A stretch of DNA of 41,777 nucleotides, taken from a virus. The DNA lies in UHGV virus genome UHGV-0060642. One strand, written 5' to 3'. The notes beneath the pieces are model-generated. The model was not told the DNA's origin and made no database searches. It worked only from the letters and a program-made list of their open reading frames with translations. Positions 5,963 to 39,417 of this stretch are shown in pieces (positions within the stretch are counted from its first letter, which is position 1; every line of letters starts with the position of its first letter). The translations under genes and the position numbers were made by a program.

Positions 5963-6095
5963 TTTTTGGGACTCCTGGCTGATTAAGTATGTCGATAAGG
6001 CGTTTCCATCCGTCACGTAATTTACGGGTGATTCGTTCAAGTAAAGATTCGGAAGGGCAGCCAGCAACAGGCCACCCTGCAATGGCATATTGCAT
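5931..6095 (-). CDS. cIII: CIII (protects CII from FtsH)
   Basis: MQYAIAGWPVAGCPSESLLERITRKLRDGWKRLIDILNQPGVPKNGSNNYGYPD matches recalled lambda CIII (54 aa); ATG at 6095 preceded by AAGGAG. Confidence 0.9.
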   Translation of the reverse strand: MQYAIAGWPVAGCPSESLLERITRKLRDGWKRLIDILNQPGVPKNGSNNYGYPD

Positions 6096-6154
6096 GGTGT
6101 GCTCCTTATTTATACATAACGAAAACGCCTCGAGTGAAGCGTTATTGGTATGCA

Positions 6155-16445: not shown

Positions 16446-16769
16446 ATGAAGATGCCAGAAAAACATGACCTGTTAGCCGCCATTCTCGCGGCAAAGGAAC
16501 AAGGCATCGGGGCAATCCTTGCGTTTGCAATGGCGTACCTTCGCGGCAGATATAATGGCGGTGCGTTTACAAAAACAGTAATCGACGCAACGATGTGCGC
16601 CATTATCGCCTGGTTCATTCGTGACCTTCTCGACTTCGCCGGACTAAGTAGCAATCTCGCTTATATAACGAGCGTGTTCATCGGCTACATCGGTACTGAC
16701 TCGATTGGTTCGCTTATCAAACGCTTCGCTGCTAAAAAAGCCGGAGTAGAAGATGGTGGAAATCAATAA
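16446..16769 (+). CDS. S: Holin/antiholin S (lambda S107/S105 dual start)
   Basis: 107 aa beginning [41 protein letters not shown], matching recalled lambda S. Confidence 0.97.
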
Positions 16770-17229
16770 TCAACGTAAGGCGTTCCTCGATATGCTGGCG
16801 TGGTCAGAGGGGACTGATAACGGACGACAGAAAACCAGAAATCATGGTTATGACGTCATTGTTGGCGGAGAGCTATTCACTGATTACTCCGATCACCCTC
16901 GCAAACTTGTCACGCTAAACCCAAAACTCAAATCAACAGCCGCAGGACGTTACCAGCTTCTTTCCCGTTGGTGGGATGCCTATCGTAAGCAGCTTGGCTT
17001 GAAAGATTTCTCTCCGAAAAGCCAGGACGCAGTTGCACTGCAGCAGATTAAGGAGCGTGGCGCTTTACCGATGATTGACCACGGTGATATTCGTCAGGCA
17101 ATCGACCGTTGCAGTAATATCTGGGCTTCACTTCCGGGGGCTGGTTATGGTCAGTTCGAGCATAAGGCTGACCGCCTGATTGCAAAATTCAAAGAAGCAG
17201 GCGGAACGGTCAGAGAGATTGAGGCATGA
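16753..17229 (+). CDS. R: Endolysin R (lytic transglycosylase)
   Basis: 158 aa matching recalled lambda R ([42 protein letters not shown]...). Confidence 0.97.
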
Positions 17230-17693
17230 GCAGAGTCACCGCGATTATCTCCGCTCTGGTTATCTGCGTCATCGTCTGCCTGTCATGGGCTGTTAATCAT
17301 TACCGTGATAACGCCATCGCCTACAAAGAACAGCGCGATAAAAAAGTCAGTGAGCTGAAGCAGGCGACCGCCACCATTACTGACATGCAGCAGCGCCAGC
17401 GTGATGCTGATGCACTTGATGCTAAATACACGAAGGAGTTAGCTGATGCGAAAGCTGAAAATGATGCTCTTCGGCGGAAGCTTGATAATGGTGGCAGGGT
17501 GCTCGTCAAAGGAAAATGCCCTGTGCCATCCTCAGACGAAACCTCCAGCGCCTCCGGCATGGGCAATGATGCCACCGTCGAACTCTCTCCAGTTGCTGGA
17601 CGAAACGTTCTCGGTATCCGGGACGGAATTATCCGCGACCAAACAGCACTGAGAACGCTTCAGGAATACATCAGGACGCAATGCCTTCGATGA
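17226..17693 (+). CDS. Rz: i-spanin Rz
   Basis: N-terminal 85 aa ([14 protein letters not shown]...[14 protein letters not shown]) match lambda Rz; C-terminal third diverges. Confidence 0.9.
17446..17652 (+). CDS. Rz1: o-spanin Rz1 (lipoprotein) embedded in Rz in the +1 frame
   Basis: [19 protein letters not shown] lipobox-type signal followed by a Pro-rich segment KPPAPPAW; fully nested in Rz as in lambda. Confidence 0.8.
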
Positions 17694-17893: not shown

Positions 17894-18036
17894 TATCTGA
17901 ATTTCACAGCGTATCTCACGCGCATATAAACGAGAGCCTTTCAGTAAGCGAGCCTGAGAAATGCCGTTATAGGTGGCGACCTCTCTCGGGCGGCTTTTCT
18001 GTGAGACAGGCTCACTTTCTAAAAGGTAAAGACGCC

Positions 18037-18561
18037 ATGAATAATCATTCAGTTATTCCAGCCTTCGACTTCCGAGAAATGGTGCAAGCCAAAAACGGAG
18101 AGGTCGTTACCACATCCAGAAAAATTGCCAAGTACTTCGGCAAGCGACACGGTGATGTTCTCAGGAAAATCGAGCAGGTTAAGGCTGATTGCTCGTGTGA
18201 GTTTAGCCAACGCAATTTTGCGTCGGCTGATTATATCGATGAGCAGGGCAAGGTTCGCCCGATGTACAGCCTGACGAAAGATGGCTGGATCATGGTTGTG
18301 ATGGGGTTCACCGGGAAAGCTGCTGCGGCAATCAAGGAGAGCTATATCGCGGCATTCAACTGGATGGCAGAGCAACTGAGCCGCCGCATGGCAATTGGCG
18401 AAGAAATGCAGCACCGCTACGCCATCAAAGAAACACGCTCAAAGCTGAAAGGTACGATCGGCAGTCGGTTAATGAACGAACGGAAGAAAGAGAAGCGTGT
18501 CCTGGCTGTCGAGCATGAATACATCTTGCAGGTGACGCAGCCCGAATTGCTGATTAATTGA
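18037..18561 (+). CDS. rha: Rha-family phage regulatory protein
   Basis: VVTTSRKIAKYFGKRHGDVLRKIEQ... N-terminal region typical of Rha (pRha domain); start set at the internal ATG. Confidence 0.75.
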   Translation: MNNHSVIPAFDFREMVQAKNGEVVTTSRKIAKYFGKRHGDVLRKIEQVKADCSCEFSQRNFASADYIDEQGKVRPMYSLTKDGWIMVVMGFTGKAAAAIKESYIAAFNWMAEQLSRRMAIGEEMQHRYAIKETRSKLKGTIGSRLMNERKKEKRVLAVEHEYILQVTQPELLIN

Positions 18562-32963: not shown

Positions 32964-33293
32964 TTAGTCATCCATGGATGGATTGAGCTTATCTCGTGTT
33001 GATGTGGCAATTTTCCCAACATTTTTCAACCAAGATTTTAAGAAGGATATGTCGTCCTTAATATCATGAATATCCTCATTCTTTATACGATCAACCTTAT
33101 CCTCTAGGCTCTCTATAGAACGCTCAATGCTAGACAGAGAGATTTTTAAGTCTCCTTGATCACGTTCCAGTGAGGATTTGAGAGCACAATATTCGTTTTC
33201 TAGAATTCCTATTTTTTTTGTTAGAGAGTGCATTCGATACTCATACACCAAACCAGAAACGACTAATGCAGCCAACAGAAACCATTCAAGCAC
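32964..33293 (-). CDS. Uncharacterized single-pass membrane protein with coiled coil (cassette gene C)
   Basis: 109 aa; GTG start preceded by AAGGGGG with about 5-nt spacing; N-terminal hydrophobic helix LEWFLLAALVVSGLVY, remainder predicted coiled coil. Confidence 0.65.
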   Translation of the reverse strand: MLEWFLLAALVVSGLVYEYRMHSLTKKIGILENEYCALKSSLERDQGDLKISLSSIERSIESLEDKVDRIKNEDIHDIKDDISFLKSWLKNVGKIATSTRDKLNPSMDD

Positions 33294-33315
33294 ACTAACC
33301 CCCTTAGTTGATATT

Positions 33316-33735
33316 TTATTTGTATGAAATCAACGAGTTAAGCTCCCTCTCATTTAGAGATTGGAATCTTTTTTCAGTTATATCAATGATGGCTGGCAAT
33401 AGTTTTTTTACCTTCTCATGACCATCAGGTTTAATGATAGCAATGATCTGGATATGAATTGGATATGTGTTGTGTACCGCAAATATCAAAAAGTTATCGC
33501 TAACTCTACGATGTATTGGCGTTGTTTTTAACCAAGGATCATCTACTCCAGGGATCCTGATGTGCGACTTGTAAATTCCCGATAAGACGGCGTGATGGTT
33601 TCTCTCAAACCCACCAATCTTACCAAGATAAGCTGAAACGGTGCCTCTGTTTTTGTAGTTTGCAAGAGCCTTCGCAAAGTATTGTTCTAATGGTCCAGCC
33701 GCTGCATCTACAACAATGCTTATGCGGTTTTCCAT
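33316..33735 (-). CDS. Uncharacterized protein, possibly YafO-like toxin fold (cassette gene B)
   Basis: 139 aa, ATG; segment SDNFLIFAVHNTYPIHIQIIAIIKPDGHEK resembles the recalled YafO C-terminal region (...HLVYCQG...LLIAILKPEPHK); weak and unverified. Confidence 0.65.
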   Translation of the reverse strand: MENRISIVVDAAAGPLEQYFAKALANYKNRGTVSAYLGKIGGFERNHHAVLSGIYKSHIRIPGVDDPWLKTTPIHRRVSDNFLIFAVHNTYPIHIQIIAIIKPDGHEKVKKLLPAIIDITEKRFQSLNERELNSLISYK

Positions 33736-34319
33736 TTTGGTGCTTCCATGCCAAATCTTTTATGTGAATCTTCAACTGATTTCTTGAATGAAGCCAACTC
33801 TTCTTCAGTGAACTCTTCAGGTTCAGCATATGATAGTGGTATGTGCTGCATTGCTAGCGTCACAAGCCCCATAGTTAGCCTTTTGTATTCTATAAAAGTA
33901 TTTATTGAGTGGTTTTTCATTGTTGTAAGAGTTGACATATGGGGCTTCCACGCATCGCTGTTCTCAGCGATGAAGAAGGTATACAACAGTTTCGCGATAC
34001 CATAATCAAGCTTAGATATTTGATCGTTCAACATATCTACATCGTCATGTTGAATATCAAGTGAGGAAATATCTTCTTCCGTACCATTACTTAATAGGTC
34101 AATGAATGTAATGTACTTTTTGCAAACTTCCTCTACAGGTGACATAACGCAGTAGATCTTGCTAAGAGCTTCAGAAGCCTGTTTTTTAGACAAAGAGCCG
34201 CTATGACTGCGATCAAAGTCTGAAATTGAACGCTCGATAGATGTTGATATGTCAGAAAAAACGTTTTCAATTTTTCCTGGCTCTTGATTCAGGATGGCCA
34301 TAACGCCTATCTCAATCAC
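33720..34319 (-). CDS. Uncharacterized acidic protein (cassette gene A)
   Basis: 199 aa from GTG at 34319 (AAGGT upstream) or 193 aa from ATG at 34301; overlaps gene B by 16 nt; about 42 bp downstream of mnt on the same strand. Confidence 0.6.
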   Translation of the reverse strand: MIEIGVMAILNQEPGKIENVFSDISTSIERSISDFDRSHSGSLSKKQASEALSKIYCVMSPVEEVCKKYITFIDLLSNGTEEDISSLDIQHDDVDMLNDQISKLDYGIAKLLYTFFIAENSDAWKPHMSTLTTMKNHSINTFIEYKRLTMGLVTLAMQHIPLSYAEPEEFTEEELASFKKSVEDSHKRFGMEAPKWKTA

Positions 34320-34361: not shown

Positions 34362-34610
34362 CTATCTGGTCTCGTACATTTTTTTCAGGGTTTCAAACAC
34401 CATCTTCTTAACAATTTCTGCTTGCTGATCAGCCAAGCGTTCAGCTTCGTCTCGATAGCCTGCAATCGGTGATGGCTTTGAGAGAGCATCCTGAACGATT
34501 TGTAATAACTCAGAGTTCATTGACCTTCCGTTAGCCTCTGCTCTTAATTTCAATTTTTCTCTTACTTCCAAAGGCATACGGAAGTTAAAGTGCGGATCGT
34601 CTCTAGCCAT
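34362..34610 (-). CDS. mnt: Mnt repressor (ribbon-helix-helix)
   Basis: MARDDPHFNFRMPLEVREKLKLRAEANGRSMNSELLQIVQDALSKPSP... matches recalled P22 Mnt. Confidence 0.93.
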   Translation of the reverse strand: MARDDPHFNFRMPLEVREKLKLRAEANGRSMNSELLQIVQDALSKPSPIAGYRDEAERLADQQAEIVKKMVFETLKKMYETR

Positions 34611-34700
34611 GCCATCACCCCAAGTTAGTGTATTGACATGATAGAAGCACTCTACTATATTCTCAATAGGTCCACGGTGGACCTATATTGTGAGGTGAAT
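34611..34700. promoter_or_regulatory. Divergent Pant/Pmnt region with Oarc and Omnt operators
   Basis: TTGACA, 17 bp, TATATT; Oarc-like ATGATAGAAGCACTCTACTAT; palindromic Omnt-like AGGTCCACGGTGGACCT (approximate coordinates). Confidence 0.85.
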
Positions 34701-34859
34701 ATGAAAGGAATGAGCAAAATGCCGCAGTTCAATTTGCGGTGGCCTAAAGAAGTATTGGATTTGGTGCGTAAGGTGGCGGAAGAGAACGGGCGATCTGTTA
34801 ACTCTGAGATTTACAAGCGAGTGATGGACAGCCTGAAGAGAGAGGGGATTACGGTATGA
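34701..34859 (+). CDS. arc: Arc repressor
   Basis: MKGMSKMPQFNLRWPKEVLDLVRKVAEENGRSVNSEIYKRVMDSLKREG matches recalled P22 Arc; GAGGTGA RBS. Confidence 0.93.
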   Translation: MKGMSKMPQFNLRWPKEVLDLVRKVAEENGRSVNSEIYKRVMDSLKREGITV

Positions 34860-35125
34860 AGGTGTCATTGCTTGATCGTTCTTTACAATTTTTGTCTGGC
34901 GCAATCATTGTAGTTTGCTTGCTCGTGATTTTTACATCGTTAATCAATATGTATCAATCAGGGGAACGATTGACAAAGACGATAGAGGAAAAAAAATCAG
35001 TCTCAAATTACGAAGTATCACATGCACATAACGATTTAGTAGAAAGCCTTGACCGTATTAACAAGAGGCTTGACGAGACAAATATGCTACTTAAGCAAAT
35101 TCAAAATGAAGTGGAAAAACGTTGA
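34856..35125 (+). CDS. Uncharacterized single-pass membrane/coiled-coil protein coupled to arc
   Basis: 89 aa; ATGA overlap with the arc stop; hydrophobic helix GAIIVVCLLVIFTSLINMY then coiled coil; not present between arc and ant in P22 as recalled. Confidence 0.65.
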   Translation: MKVSLLDRSLQFLSGAIIVVCLLVIFTSLINMYQSGERLTKTIEEKKSVSNYEVSHAHNDLVESLDRINKRLDETNMLLKQIQNEVEKR

Positions 35126-35155
35126 AGCCCCAACTGCTGTAACAGTCAGGGCTTC
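35112..35155 (-). terminator. Possible terminator of a sar-like antisense RNA (opposite the ant 5' region)
   Basis: Extended hairpin GAAGCCCcaACTG...CAGTcaGGGCTTC; on the minus strand it is followed by AACGTTTTT (approximate coordinates). Confidence 0.4.
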
Positions 35156-35187
35156 GGTATCAACAAAACTTACGAGGTATTATTGAT

Positions 35188-36078
35188 ATGTCAAGCTTAG
35201 CAAAGTCAACTGTAAATTGCACTAATAGCATCATCATTTCTGACGTCAAGATTCATATGGATTCAGAGGGGCGTTACTCGCTTAATGACCTTCATGTAGC
35301 GTCTGGAAAGGAGGAAAAACATCAGCCAGCTTTCTTCATGCGTAGAAATGAAACTATTGAATTGATTAATGAAATTTTTAATTCTGCGGATATGCAGAAT
35401 AAGAATCCCGTCCTTTCTAAGAAAGGTAGATATGGTGGAACCTACGTGTGCAAGGAGCTTGTTTACTCCTACGCCATGTGGATTAGCGCAGCCTTTGCGC
35501 TGAAGGTTATCCGTGCATATGACGCAATGGTTACTACCACACAAGAAAGGAGGGCTATTGGCGGTAAAACTTCAGTAGCTGAACGCACACCGCTACGCGA
35601 TGCAGTAAACATGCTGGTAGGAAAGAAAGGACTTCGCTATGACGATGCATACAATATGGTTCATCAGCGTTTTGGTATTGACAGCATTGATGAACTTTCA
35701 ATTGAACAAATCCCGCTGGCCGTAGAGTACATCCACAGGGTAGTGCTTGAAGGCGAGTTCATCGGCAAACAAGAGAAGAAAGCAAACGAGCTTTCTGCAA
35801 AAGAAGCAAACAGCCTTGTATGGTTATGGGATTATGCCAACCGCTCACAGGCATTATTCCGCGAACTGTATCCGGCGCTAAAACAAATTCAATCGAACTA
35901 TTCCGGCAGATGCTACGACTACGGTCATGAATTCTCGTATGTTATCGGAATGGCGAGAGACGTTTTAATCAATCACACACGAGATGTTGATATCAATGAG
36001 CCAGACGGACCAACGAATCTTTCCGCATGGATGAGACTTAAGAATAAAGAATTGCCTCCTTCAGTACATAACTACTGA
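35188..36078 (+). CDS. ant: Antirepressor Ant (KilA-N domain)
   Basis: 296 aa; N-terminal KilA-N-like region ([31 protein letters not shown]); position after arc as in P22 immI. Confidence 0.85.
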
Positions 36079-36095
36079 CAGATAACCAACGCAAC

Positions 36096-36121
36096 GACCC
36101 GGCTTCGGCTGGGTTTTTTTA
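36096..36121 (+). terminator. Rho-independent terminator after ant
   Basis: CCCGGC-ttcg-GCTGGG hairpin followed by TTTTTTT. Confidence 0.75.
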
Positions 36122-36188: not shown

Positions 36189-36689
36189 TTACCTACTCAA
36201 CAGATGGTCAGCAACCATGTTTGCTGCCTTATAAGCTATAGCCGCTTCATCAATGGTGTTGAATCTCCCAAGGGTTATGTTTTTACCTGAGACATTTATC
36301 TGAGCTTGCCATTGATTTCTGGCTTGACAGAAAGTTACCCCCTTGATTCCAGCATTGCTATTTCGAGGTCCGACATTTAATGCATTTACGACTCTGCTAA
36401 CATCCCTAAGGTTTGAGATTGCGTTATTTCTTCTGTTTCTATCAATGTGGTCAATCTCTTGTTTGGGCCATTCGCCATATACATACAGCCAGGCAAGTCT
36501 ATGTGCAAAATATCTTACGCCATCAATATTAATTGCGTTATATCCATAAGAAATTGTGCCAGCAACTTTCCCAACAGCACCTCTGGCGCTTAATTTCTTT
36601 TTCCAAGTGAAAATTCCTGTTTCTTTATTGTAATCGAGAACCTCCATAAGGCGCTCCCGAGTTACTACCTCGTGACGTCTCTTACTCAT
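36189..36689 (-). CDS. HNH endonuclease with AP2-type DNA-binding domain (homing-endonuclease-like)
   Basis: HNH signature [26 protein letters not shown]2-like [40 protein letters not shown]; start at internal ATG 36689 preceded by GGAG. Confidence 0.8.
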
Positions 36690-36702
36690 TATTTTCTCCG
36701 GA

Positions 36703-39417
36703 ATGTTTATTATGCCAGAACAATTATACAACGTAGTTGTTTCACAACCAAGTCAGTTATTTACTTTAGCTCGCTCGTTTAAAGCAAATGCCAATGGCAA
36801 AATTTATATCGGTAAAATTGACACTGACCCGGTAAATCCTGAAAACCAGATTCAAGTTTATGTAGAGAACGAAGATGGCTCTCACGTTCCTGTTGCACAG
36901 CCAATCGTCATCAATGCCGCTGGGTATCCAGTATATAACGGACAGATTGCCAAATTCGTAACCGTGCAAGGCCATTCTATGGCTGTTTACGATGCTTATG
37001 GCACTCAGCAGTTTTATTTTCCAAATGTATTAAAATACGATCCAGATCAGTTTGGCCCAGACTTCAAAGAGCAGTTATCTCAATCAGGAGCATACATTAA
37101 TGATGATTCAAAAGGTGATGCATTAATTGGGGTAAGGCAGCCATTTACCGGGGCTGTAACTATAACTCAGCATGAAAACAATGCTCTTTTCTTAAATGTA
37201 AAACAATTCGGAGCAATTGGGGATGGGAAATATCATCCATTATCTGAGAGGTTTTCTTCAATTTCTGAAGCAAAATCCTTATATCCTTTTGTTGACTCAT
37301 TATCTCAGTCAATAGACTGGGCCGCGTGGCAAGCTGCCCTTAACACAGGAAAGGTTATTTATGGTACTGATAATGCGTATGTAATAACGGATACGTTAAC
37401 ACCTGTTTCTGGTGGTGGGATAATTGGTCTTGGTGTGGGCAAATGGGTCTCCGGATATACTGCAACATTTGCTCCTGATATTACCACAGGGACCACATTC
37501 CTGATGTACGGGGTAGGAAATAAAAAATATACTGTAGATTGTGTTTCTAATATGGATGTTAGTGGTGGTGTGGTTTCTAATCCATCTTCCGAAGACCCGT
37601 ATACAACAACAGCACCTGCGTCATCATATGATTTATTGGATTTTACTAACGGTGATGCTAATGGGACTACAAGAGCCACGCTTAAACCATTCTCTGCCGC
37701 AATATTGATGCCTGAGACAGGATGTGTTCGCCTTGAGAACTTTCGTGTTGTTCCATATTTCAATGGGCTGGATGGTTATAAAGACATTGCAAATACCGGT
37801 CTTGGCGATGAGTGGGATGTAGGTATTTGGTCACGTGCGTCTTTTGGCAATGAATACCGCAATTTGCAGGTGGTTGGATACTGGCGCAAGACGGCACTTT
37901 TAAAAACGAACATTCCTGTATCTGGCACGCTGGCTGCTCAGGGCGAGGATGAAAACTATTATCACTGTAGATTCCAGGGATTCAAGGGTGTTTCGATCCG
38001 CGCCAATGATGTATTCCGAATTACAGCGGTAACGTCCAGCACTATCGAAATCCCATGGTCAGCAAGCCACACCTTCGAAACGTCCGGAGTTTTAAGATCT
38101 GGAGGCAGGAATTTCACTTATTCAGGATTATCCGTATCCGGTGATAAGTTAGTATTTACTGGAGTGTCTAACGCTTCTGAGGCAACAGTAGGTTCTACTA
38201 TACGGCGAAATGACATAGATAACTTTGGTATGGCGGGAACGCAATTTTTCGATTGCTACATTACCAGCCTGTATCACCACACACATCTGCTTGCCACATC
38301 GCAATACCTGTCTCAACCATTCAGCCGACCATCAGAGTGTATGGAGGTTTCAGGGGAACCAGTTCGCGGTGTACAGGTACATGCAGGAACCATTCAGGGA
38401 TGGGATGATGTTCTTATTCATCTGCATGACTGTGGAAATATGAACTTTTACAGTACATATTTCGAAAGCCAGCAAGCATATGTAACTATAAATGGTGGTA
38501 ATGCTATTGGTTATGGAGCACGTATGATAGCTTCCCGGCAATCAACAAGCTCATTACCATATGCAGCAGGGAATACACGAGTGCTTAGAATGGTCGGGTG
38601 CTCTGAAGGCAATGGCGTTGACTGGGGTCCTGTATTTAACAACTATACAGGAGGAAGATATAATTCTGGAGACGGTGTATTTAACCCCCGCGATGCATTT
38701 ATAGACCATAAATCTCTTCCTGAGCAGTCAGGAGGTGAGTCAAGACTCGTATCACAAAAAGGAAATGCCAGAGTAGTATGTGGTGTTGGTAAAACTGTAC
38801 TGCTTGGACCAACGTCAGGAGATTGTAATTTACAGAGTAATACCGGAAGTTTAAATATTAGAAGTGGGATAAGAGTAAGAGTCGGTCACGCTGATGGAAC
38901 AGACTGGTGGTTGGCAGATGCTAATAAAATAGCTCCTGTTGATGATAATGTTAAAGCTATTGGACAGCCATCAAACAGATGCTCTGTTATCTATGCAGGA
39001 ACCGGGTCAATCAATACATCAGATGAAACTCTTAAAACAAGATATGATATTCTTAATGCAGAGCGTGATGCCGCTATTGAAATAAAGTCAGTCATCTATA
39101 AATTTAAATTTAATGACTCAATTAATCACAAAGGAATTGAGTCGTCCAGGTATCATTTTGGCGTTGGCGCTCAAACTGTAGGGGATATTCTTAGAAAGCA
39201 TGGTTTAAATCCTGAGCAATATGCTTTTTGGTGTTACGATGAATGGCCTGACGTATGGGATGAAGAGGTGATAACTGAAGAGAGCACAGATCCTGATACA
39301 GGTGAGAAAATTTATTCTCAATATAAAACAGGAGATATGATTCTTGTAAAAAAAGCAGGAGGACGCTACGGAATTCGTTATGACGAATTGGCTATGTTTA
39401 TATTAATGGCAATGTAG
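36703..39417 (+). CDS. Tailspike: P22-type head-binding domain, central beta-helix domain, C-terminal intramolecular-chaperone (S74-like) domain
   Basis: N-terminus ...[49 protein letters not shown]...[15 protein letters not shown]...NVLKYDPDQ matches the P22 gp9 head-binding domain; C-terminus ...[11 protein letters not shown]...[23 protein letters not shown] resembles auto-cleaving chaperone domains of T5 pb1 and K1F endosialidase; alternative ATG at 36712. Confidence 0.88.

Follow-up and report, generated by a model that had tools for sequence, protein, structure and literature searches.

Virus genome UHGV-0060642 (41,777 nucleotides (nt), read on one strand, 5' to 3'; this whole stretch is called the window below) carries at positions 34362-36115 an immunity-I (immI) module of the P22 type, in which mnt diverges from an operon of arc and ant driven by the promoter Pant, and which also encodes the antisense RNA sar; the virus is a P22-like E. 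coli phage. Our subject is an additional gene in this operon, located between arc and sar and encoding a protein of 89 amino acids (aa), which we refer to as orf89. We propose that orf89 would be one of several interchangeable small-gene cassettes, all found at one fixed slot that has the 3' end of arc on one side and the sar terminator on the other; our confidence in this anatomical, cassette and regulatory reading is high. The features that carry the argument are the following.

34856-35125, plus strand: orf89, 89 aa, ATG start, predicted single-pass membrane protein, the cassette in the arc-sar slot
34842-34847, plus strand: Shine-Dalgarno-like GAGGGG within the arc coding sequence, 8 nt upstream of the orf89 ATG (from the sequence)
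34989-34996, plus strand: A8 homopolymer in orf89, codons E45-K47 (from the sequence)
35120-35186, minus strand: sar antisense RNA (Rfam RF00262, 63.6 bits against a cut-off of 43, E = 3.1e-12)
35114-35155, minus strand: sar intrinsic terminator, a 14-bp stem (35124-35155) with a 4-nt loop, then AACGTTTTTC (35114-35123)
35174-35177, plus strand: ant Shine-Dalgarno GAGG, complementary to sar loop I (from the sequence and the cmscan alignment)
35194-35222, minus strand: candidate sar promoter (Psar), placed by homology to the position of P22 Psar, with -35 GTGCAA (35217-35222), a 17-nt spacer, TGc (35200-35202) and -10 TAAGCT (35194-35199)

The gene orf89 and the sar RNA

A preliminary description of this DNA had placed an 89-aa open reading frame (ORF) between arc and ant, overlapping the arc stop codon. 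This ORF is present at 34856-35125 and is translationally coupled to arc: its ATG and the arc TGA overlap as ATGA (34856-34859), and the final codons of arc hold both this junction and the Shine-Dalgarno sequence that serve the downstream cassette. The same GAGGGG is seen in Salmonella phage vB_SemP_Emek (Emek), in Escherichia phage EC.P3 and at a divergent locus, L131. At its other end, the orf89 TGA is fused to the stem of the sar terminator, and the last codons (GAA AAA CGT TGA) provide the terminator with its U-run; as a consequence, the sar RNA over the ant ribosome-binding site is left intact. The promoter scan gave no promoter-like site from the Pant region to the orf89 ATG, and the only terminator at orf89 is that of sar, on the opposite strand. 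Inside orf89 there is a promoter-like TTGACA-16-AAAAAT (10/12; 34970-34997, plus strand) directed towards ant. We set this site aside as probably fortuitous, because the divergent L131 homologue lacks its -35 hexamer, having CTG in place of TTG, a synonymous change.

The match to sar spans the whole family model (positions 1-68 of 68), and none of its base pairs is flagged as non-standard. Stem-loop I is fully paired despite a sequence unlike the family consensus and exposes in its loop an anti-Shine-Dalgarno CCUC opposite the GAGG of ant, and stem-loop II is the terminator. The 5' end of the RNA (35186) lies 2 nt before the ant ATG (35188) and its 3' end in the final two codons of orf89, so that the overlap of the two comprises the last 6 nt of the ORF (35120-35125). 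The same Rfam model recovers the annotated sar of P22 (97.8 bits) and equivalents in Emek, EC.P3 and two metagenomic relatives. On the minus strand the 14-bp stem is followed by AACGUUUUU, as in an intrinsic terminator, and the z-score of the hairpin against shuffled sequences (-5.35, minus strand) is well beyond chance. Folding gives -23.5 kcal/mol and an uninterrupted stem for the minus-strand RNA, compared with -18.0 kcal/mol and an internal loop for the plus strand (a difference of 5.5), where two G.U pairs become A.C mismatches; the P22 hairpin is biased in the same direction. This bias fits a function on the minus strand.

The preliminary description had interpreted the hairpin and its minus-strand T-run as a 'sar-like' antisense terminator and expected a small RNA at about 35110-35220. 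The full-length match bears this out and falls within the expected positions. The wording 'sar-like' was right as to type and understated the case: the hairpin is the orthologue of the P22 sar terminator and the entire sar RNA is present. It is an ordinary member of an established family that was already known. Its candidate promoter has GTGCAA as the -35 (GTGTTA in P22), and its -10 matches the consensus at 3/6 positions, with A at position 2, T at position 6 and the extended TGn retained; at this position (ant codons 3-4), the other allele classes of the ant 5' end carry TATACT, TACACT or TATAAT. The sar RNA is probably made here, though perhaps weakly.

With regard to orf89, the ORF looks like a real gene, since replacement changes are rarer than silent ones and a homologue is found in the same slot of another phage. 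Compared with a 91% identical allele (P0003), the proportions of replacement and silent differences (pN/pS) are 0.038/0.123, and close alleles differ by nine silent and two replacement changes. The homologue (P0009; 83 aa, 46-48% identity) occupies the arc-sar slot of a divergent P22-like phage and keeps the ATGA coupling, the fusion of TGA and hairpin, the membrane helix and the motif SGERLT-x-TIE, with an in-frame gap of seven residues; the ratio of replacement to silent substitution rates (dN/dS) between the two is 0.52. Together, the evidence indicates selection on the orf89 protein.

The gene is also recurrently inactivated or variable, as judged from its frameshifted and altered forms. 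Three 60-aa variants from other E. coli assemblies (P0005, P0007, P0008) lose the orf89 frame at residues 46-47, in the A8 tract, and a 94-aa variant (P0004) has an acidic N-terminus that replaces the membrane helix.

A word search of a collection of 5.8 billion proteins returned eight clusters of the orf89 family (at least 84% identity), the named ones being from E. coli. A full HMMER search of 1.84 billion representatives returned near-identical E. coli alleles and one distant relative (P0009), and a scan of one genome per bacterial species returned no relative. Among complete E. coli genomes the gene occurs in 14/5,426, with an annotated Arc-family gene under or beside each match; it is also found in two phage records and in 13 near-identical IMG/VR contigs. 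One further IMG/VR match (L145) was rejected as a false positive, a helicase that shares the peptide ERLTKTIEE. The gene stands directly after arc in 4/4 annotated E. coli or phage contexts inspected and at every locus of the survey below that carries it. The protein, a near-orphan, belongs to PHROG 27312 (6.5e-61), a family annotated as function unknown, and is labelled hypothetical protein in GenBank/RefSeq. No paper on ORFs between arc and ant, or on the orf89 protein, was found in the literature searched, and a transcriptomics paper on Salmonella prophages does not mention arc, sar, immI or mnt as whole words.

The arc-sar slot and its occupants

As the preliminary description stated, P22 has just an intercistronic region at this place, a 68-nt arc-ant spacer that holds sar. 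The distance from the arc stop codon to the hairpin is 4 nt in P22 and 264 nt here. To survey this interval, IMG/VR was scanned for the exact sar hairpin pattern, which gave at least 120 loci; the usable loci, with the window included, numbered 115; hairpins too divergent for the exact pattern, such as that of L131, fall outside this sample. All counts in this section are among the matches listed. The slot was empty at 62 of the usable loci and occupied at 53, in each case by one of eight ORF families (57-89 aa) or by the deleted remnant of one. The resulting occupancy of 46% is a sample estimate, because the exact hairpin pattern was required and the count is among the matches listed. The occupants are:

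67-aa CxxC...CxxC protein (L023/L038): 18 loci
57-aa ORF with a GTG start: 9 loci and 4 deleted remnants
89-aa orf89 protein: 8 loci
Emek-type orf73: 7 loci
80-aa ORF: 2 loci
74-aa CxxC...CxxC zinc-ribbon-like ORF (L043/L053): 2 loci
60-aa stand-alone ClpX C4 zinc finger (L049, L076; PF06689, 43 bits against a cut-off of 27): 2 loci
63-aa CxxC...CxxC zinc-ribbon-like ORF (L028): 1 locus

The eight families have no evident sequence similarity to one another, as judged without formal pairwise comparison. At four loci (L027, L056, L109, L120) the 57-aa ORF is reduced to a remnant of 11 codons (VIRLDAAKKSKQ*), apparently by a deletion between the two ends of the ORF, and cassettes thus also decay in place.

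The junctions are conserved on both sides. Where the slot is occupied, the arc C-termini that were read follow ...SLK(R/K)EG-x-x-(V/I)* with a start/stop overlap of 4 nt (ATGA or GTGA), and this arc ending supplies the Shine-Dalgarno sequence as well as the overlap. At empty slots, arcs of the P22 type end in ...SFKKEGRIGA* where read, and other arc families end differently. Every cassette terminates in A-rich codons and a TGA joined directly to the base with which the hairpin stem begins, and for this reason the U-run of the terminator is always kept (e.g., AACGTTTTT, CTGTTTTT, AACTTTTT, AAATTTT). Three or more arc families and five or more ant 5' alleles are found in combination with the cassettes; orf89 alone occurs with two arc families and four ant alleles. 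These varied combinations indicate that cassettes are exchanged, relative to the arc and ant alleles, by recombination in the short conserved flanks.

The 'extra' gene of the preliminary description is present, though not unique to this genome: at this very slot, phages commonly differ in whether they carry a gene and in which one, and orf89 is one allele of that polymorphism. While the switch of sar and immI is textbook knowledge, we consider the anatomy of the slot to be the useful part of these results. Among the sampled P22-like contigs that have a sar hairpin, close to one in two contains an additional small gene between arc and sar, and we found no description of a defined cassette slot at this place in the literature searched.

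Regulation and possible functions of orf89

The expression of orf89 needs to be considered within the module that surrounds it, which comprises the following features.

34362-34610, minus strand: mnt, 82 aa, repressor of Pant in the lysogen (Pfam Arc 1.1e-27, Repressor_Mnt 5.5e-15)
34633-34690, plus strand: Pant, TTGACA-17-TATATT (34633-34661; promoter scan 11/12), with the overlapping arc operator and the mnt operator
34701-34859, plus strand: arc, 52 aa, with the variant C-terminus ...DSLKREGITV (Pfam Arc 1.7e-27)
35188-36078, plus strand: ant, 296 aa, a KilA-N N-terminal allele with the P22 antirepressor C-terminal domain (Pfam P22_AR_C 3.5e-29, KilA-N 4.4e-19)
36096-36115, plus strand: intrinsic terminator 3' of ant, an 8-bp stem then TTTTTTT (terminator scan)

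Divergent overlapping promoters are flanked here by repressors of the Arc fold, with the antirepressor downstream, and the immI module itself is ordinary. The mnt genes of P22 and epsilon34 were matched by megablast, the promoter and operator stretch differs at two positions (alignment columns 1-82) from the P22 DNA in which Pant, O-arc and O-mnt are annotated, and terminators are annotated at the equivalent place after ant in P22 and Emek.

In P22, Pant fires when the phage DNA enters the cell, Arc shuts it off and Mnt holds it off in the lysogen, and late transcripts are thought to read through the immI region towards the tailspike gene (PMC2629481). By analogy, Pant would drive orf89 along with arc and ant. 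Synthesis would begin right after DNA entry and be brief, ending when Arc turns Pant off, and late-operon transcripts that run on to the tailspike gene may include orf89 a second time. In the lysogen, where Mnt represses Pant, no expression is expected, because orf89 lies behind Pant, the mnt operator is conserved and no other suitably placed promoter was found. As in P22, sar would pair with the ant leader and block the translation of Ant.

The protein has the layout that the preliminary description had given it, one transmembrane helix and a coiled coil, as far as prediction can tell. Its Kyte-Doolittle maximum over 19 residues is 2.79 (residues 12-30), AlphaFold2 returns a single continuous helix (residues 5-88, mean pLDDT 83), and the 59-residue tail (31-89) is 36% charged with a moderate heptad pattern (47% hydrophobic residues at positions a/d, compared with 25% overall). 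A likeness to gene C of the window (32964-33293, 109 aa) had also been noted. It holds for the architecture, gene C having a weaker N-terminal hydrophobic segment (Kyte-Doolittle 1.48) and a charged helical tail, and fails for the sequence (BLASTP E = 2.7). We propose that orf89 may be a single-pass inner-membrane protein with its N-terminus in the cytoplasm and a charged helical tail of roughly 57 residues in the periplasm, an orientation that its flanking charges weakly favour and that those of P0009 favour more clearly. At the envelope of the infected cell, our guess is that it could hinder the DNA entry of competing phages or, alternatively, alter an inner-membrane or periplasmic process.

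Taken as a whole, an in-operon accessory cassette with an envelope-level function is the explanation that we consider probable, while the specific envelope-level function of orf89 is tentative. A number of points weigh against this explanation. The protein has no match to a family of known function in Pfam, NCBIfam, PADLOC, PHROGs or the Protein Data Bank (PDB), where a profile search gave only coiled-coil noise (E >= 0.03), so that its proposed envelope role and topology are read from composition only. The charges that flank the helix (two positive and one negative on the N side, two positive and three negative on the C side) give a weak positive-inside signal. The frameshifted 60-aa variants show that full-length orf89 is dispensable, at least in prophages. 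With regard to expression, all that we state for orf89 and sar is inferred, and late read-through is carried over from P22. Finally, the candidate Psar was not called by the consensus promoter scan of the window and its -10 (TAAGCT) is degenerate, so that sar may be made weakly.

A protective role in the lysogen, such as the phage exclusion for which the preliminary description suggested assays, is less likely. It fits poorly because orf89 is expected early and possibly late, and not in the lysogen, where the gene stands behind a Pant repressed by Mnt with no other driving promoter found. As to described exclusion or defence proteins, no PADLOC, Pfam or NCBIfam family matches orf89.

A more far-reaching possibility, which we regard as speculative, is that the arc-sar junction may be a dedicated docking site for immediate-early mini-effectors that phages could interchange. 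The exchange would proceed by recombination at two short conserved junctions, one in the arc tail, where the Shine-Dalgarno sequence and ATGA lie, and one at the sar terminator. The Pant operon might then act as a weapons operon with a burst and a shut-off, comparable to anti-CRISPR/Aca operons, and orf89 might be a new effector directed at the envelope or at defence. The effectors may include membrane proteins like orf89, stand-alone ClpX zinc-finger decoys and other proteins of 57-89 aa. The slot yields a short, defined list of small proteins, orf89 and the stand-alone ClpX zinc fingers among them. Their predicted synthesis falls within minutes of the onset of infection, from a promoter that ranks among the most thoroughly studied in phages. 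Given the tractable genetics, these proteins would be cheap to test for exclusion, anti-defence and host-takeover activity.

The main rival to an envelope-level function is that the slot holds immediate-early counter-defence or host-takeover effectors in an operon resembling those of acr and Aca, with orf89 anchored in the membrane, its tail in the cytoplasm. In such an operon a very strong promoter would fire as the DNA enters, small effectors would be produced, and Arc as the autorepressor would then close it down. This would be consistent with eight small ORF families (57-89 aa) that lack evident similarity and share conserved junctions, with all cassettes lying behind Pant with Arc as autorepressor, and with a topology signal weak enough for a cytoplasmic tail. 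It would also suit the other occupants of the slot, notably the ClpX zinc-finger mini-proteins: the stand-alone ClpX zinc finger and the three CxxC...CxxC mini-proteins could be decoys for the site at which ClpX docks adaptors or substrates and are plausible as decoys of adaptor sites on host proteases. Nonetheless, a scan of six proteins from the slot or its neighbourhood gave no match to any known family of defence or anti-defence proteins, and the analogy with acr/aca operons is a resemblance only. We consider this rival unlikely as an account of orf89.

A second rival would make orf89 an accessory of lysis timing, made by late read-through and modulating holin, spanin or envelope disruption. 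Rz-type i-spanins, as well as small single-pass phage envelope proteins such as T4 Sp and RI, have an N-terminal membrane helix and a short charged helical domain, with a predicted orientation of N-terminus in and C-terminus out, and orf89 shares this layout of a membrane helix followed by a helical, possibly periplasmic domain. Its PHROG matches to Rz-like spanin families (phrog_214, E = 0.048), however, are far from significant and typical of compositional coiled-coil matches. The protein is shorter than Rz, most relatives lack its gene, which is not part of the lysis cassette, and no lipoprotein-like partner was seen among the ORFs that overlap or adjoin orf89. As the phage's own spanin it was rejected, since the cassette of holin, endolysin and Rz-like spanin (phrog_13, 2.8e-75; Rz at 17226-17693) is complete at 16446-17693. 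We regard a role in lysis as improbable.

It is very improbable that orf89 and sar resemble a type I toxin-antitoxin system, with the protein toxic at the membrane and sar doubling as its antisense control. The small hydrophobic protein does adjoin an antisense RNA, and the recurrent frameshifts in the A8 tract could mean selection against a toxic product. Typical type I toxins, however, are shorter than 60 aa, and their antisense RNAs span the 5' leader or the whole ORF. Here sar covers neither the start of the would-be toxin nor most of its mRNA: it overlaps just 6 nt at the end of orf89, its conserved target, the ribosome-binding site of ant, is 330 nt away from where orf89 starts, and sar is also found beside seven unrelated, mostly non-hydrophobic cassettes and beside empty slots. 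Just as remote is a non-functional leftover of recombination without a useful product, an explanation that has on its side the many chance ORFs (60-95 aa) of this AT-rich region, a tiny, nearly clonal family and the truncated variants, and against it the excess of silent over replacement changes, a 46-48% identical homologue that retains frame, helix, motif and both junctions, and a Shine-Dalgarno sequence conserved at 8-nt spacing.

Several neighbouring features were also recorded. Between the ant terminator and the tailspike gene, an HNH endonuclease ORF (36189-36731, minus strand; phrog_99, 1.2e-63) overlaps the tailspike start at 36703 and resembles a homing-endonuclease insertion; it is not present in the P22, Emek and APEC O2-211 contexts viewed. 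The position of sieA in P22 is filled here by three minus-strand genes (32964-34319): a 109-aa ORF with a hydrophobic N-terminus and a helical tail (phrog_5962), a homologue of YafO-family toxins (33316-33735; PF13957, 1.1e-11) and an overlapping upstream ORF of 199 aa (33720-34319; phrog_18235), which may partner the YafO-family homologue. This trio, or a pair from it, recurs in L006 and L128 and not in L004 and L005. Elsewhere in the window, a lambda cIII thermoregulator element (Rfam RF01804, 88.5 bits, E = 2e-20) lies at 6050-6108 (minus strand), and a second Rha/Ant-like regulator ORF (18001-18561, plus strand; phrog_518, 7.3e-78) lies directly downstream of the lysis cassette.

Comparison with known systems

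The sar RNA described here shares with that of P22 (Liao et al. 1987, Wu et al. 1987 and Schaefer & McClure 1997, as cited in PMC2629481) its length of about 67 nt, its minus-strand position across the ant ribosome-binding site with the 5' end just before the ant ATG, and its two stem-loops with an anti-Shine-Dalgarno sequence in loop I. Only two positions, both in the loop, differ in the terminator. By contrast, the sequence of stem-loop I is wholly unlike that of P22 and yet still pairs, the presumed -10 is TAAGCT instead of TATACT, and the 3' U-run lies inside the end of the extra gene, whereas in P22 it lies just after the arc stop codon. The immI modules of the two phages have in common the order mnt-arc-ant, the promoter and operators already compared, and the site between the gene 16 homologue and the tailspike gene.

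Emek shares with the window the arc C-terminal variant, the ATGA junction, sar and ant in an alignment that is 96.7% identical, but carries an unrelated 73-aa ORF (orf73, AFM54340.1) in the slot. EC.P3 encodes the identical 89-aa protein (XOD30081.1), but here the gene is paired with another arc family and another ant allele. Both slot proteins are annotated as hypothetical proteins only.

Villafane et al. (2008, PMC2629481) described the 'ant moron' of P22-like phages as a gene-flux hot spot and counted ten types of it among sixteen genomes. That account covers whole-gene variation around immI and describes no defined cassette slot between arc and sar; the slot reported here differs from it in having fixed junctions and translational coupling to arc. 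Compared with classical morons (Hendrix et al. 2000, as cited in PMC2629481), orf89 shares presence or absence at one site among close relatives and dispensability for the core life cycle. A classical moron usually has its own promoter and terminator and is expressed in the prophage, whereas the orf89 cassette has neither and borrows Pant and the ribosomes of arc, and prophage expression is not expected of it. We regard orf89 as an accessory gene in a region of known flux, and its unusual feature is that it is a translationally coupled cassette inside an operon and not a self-contained moron.

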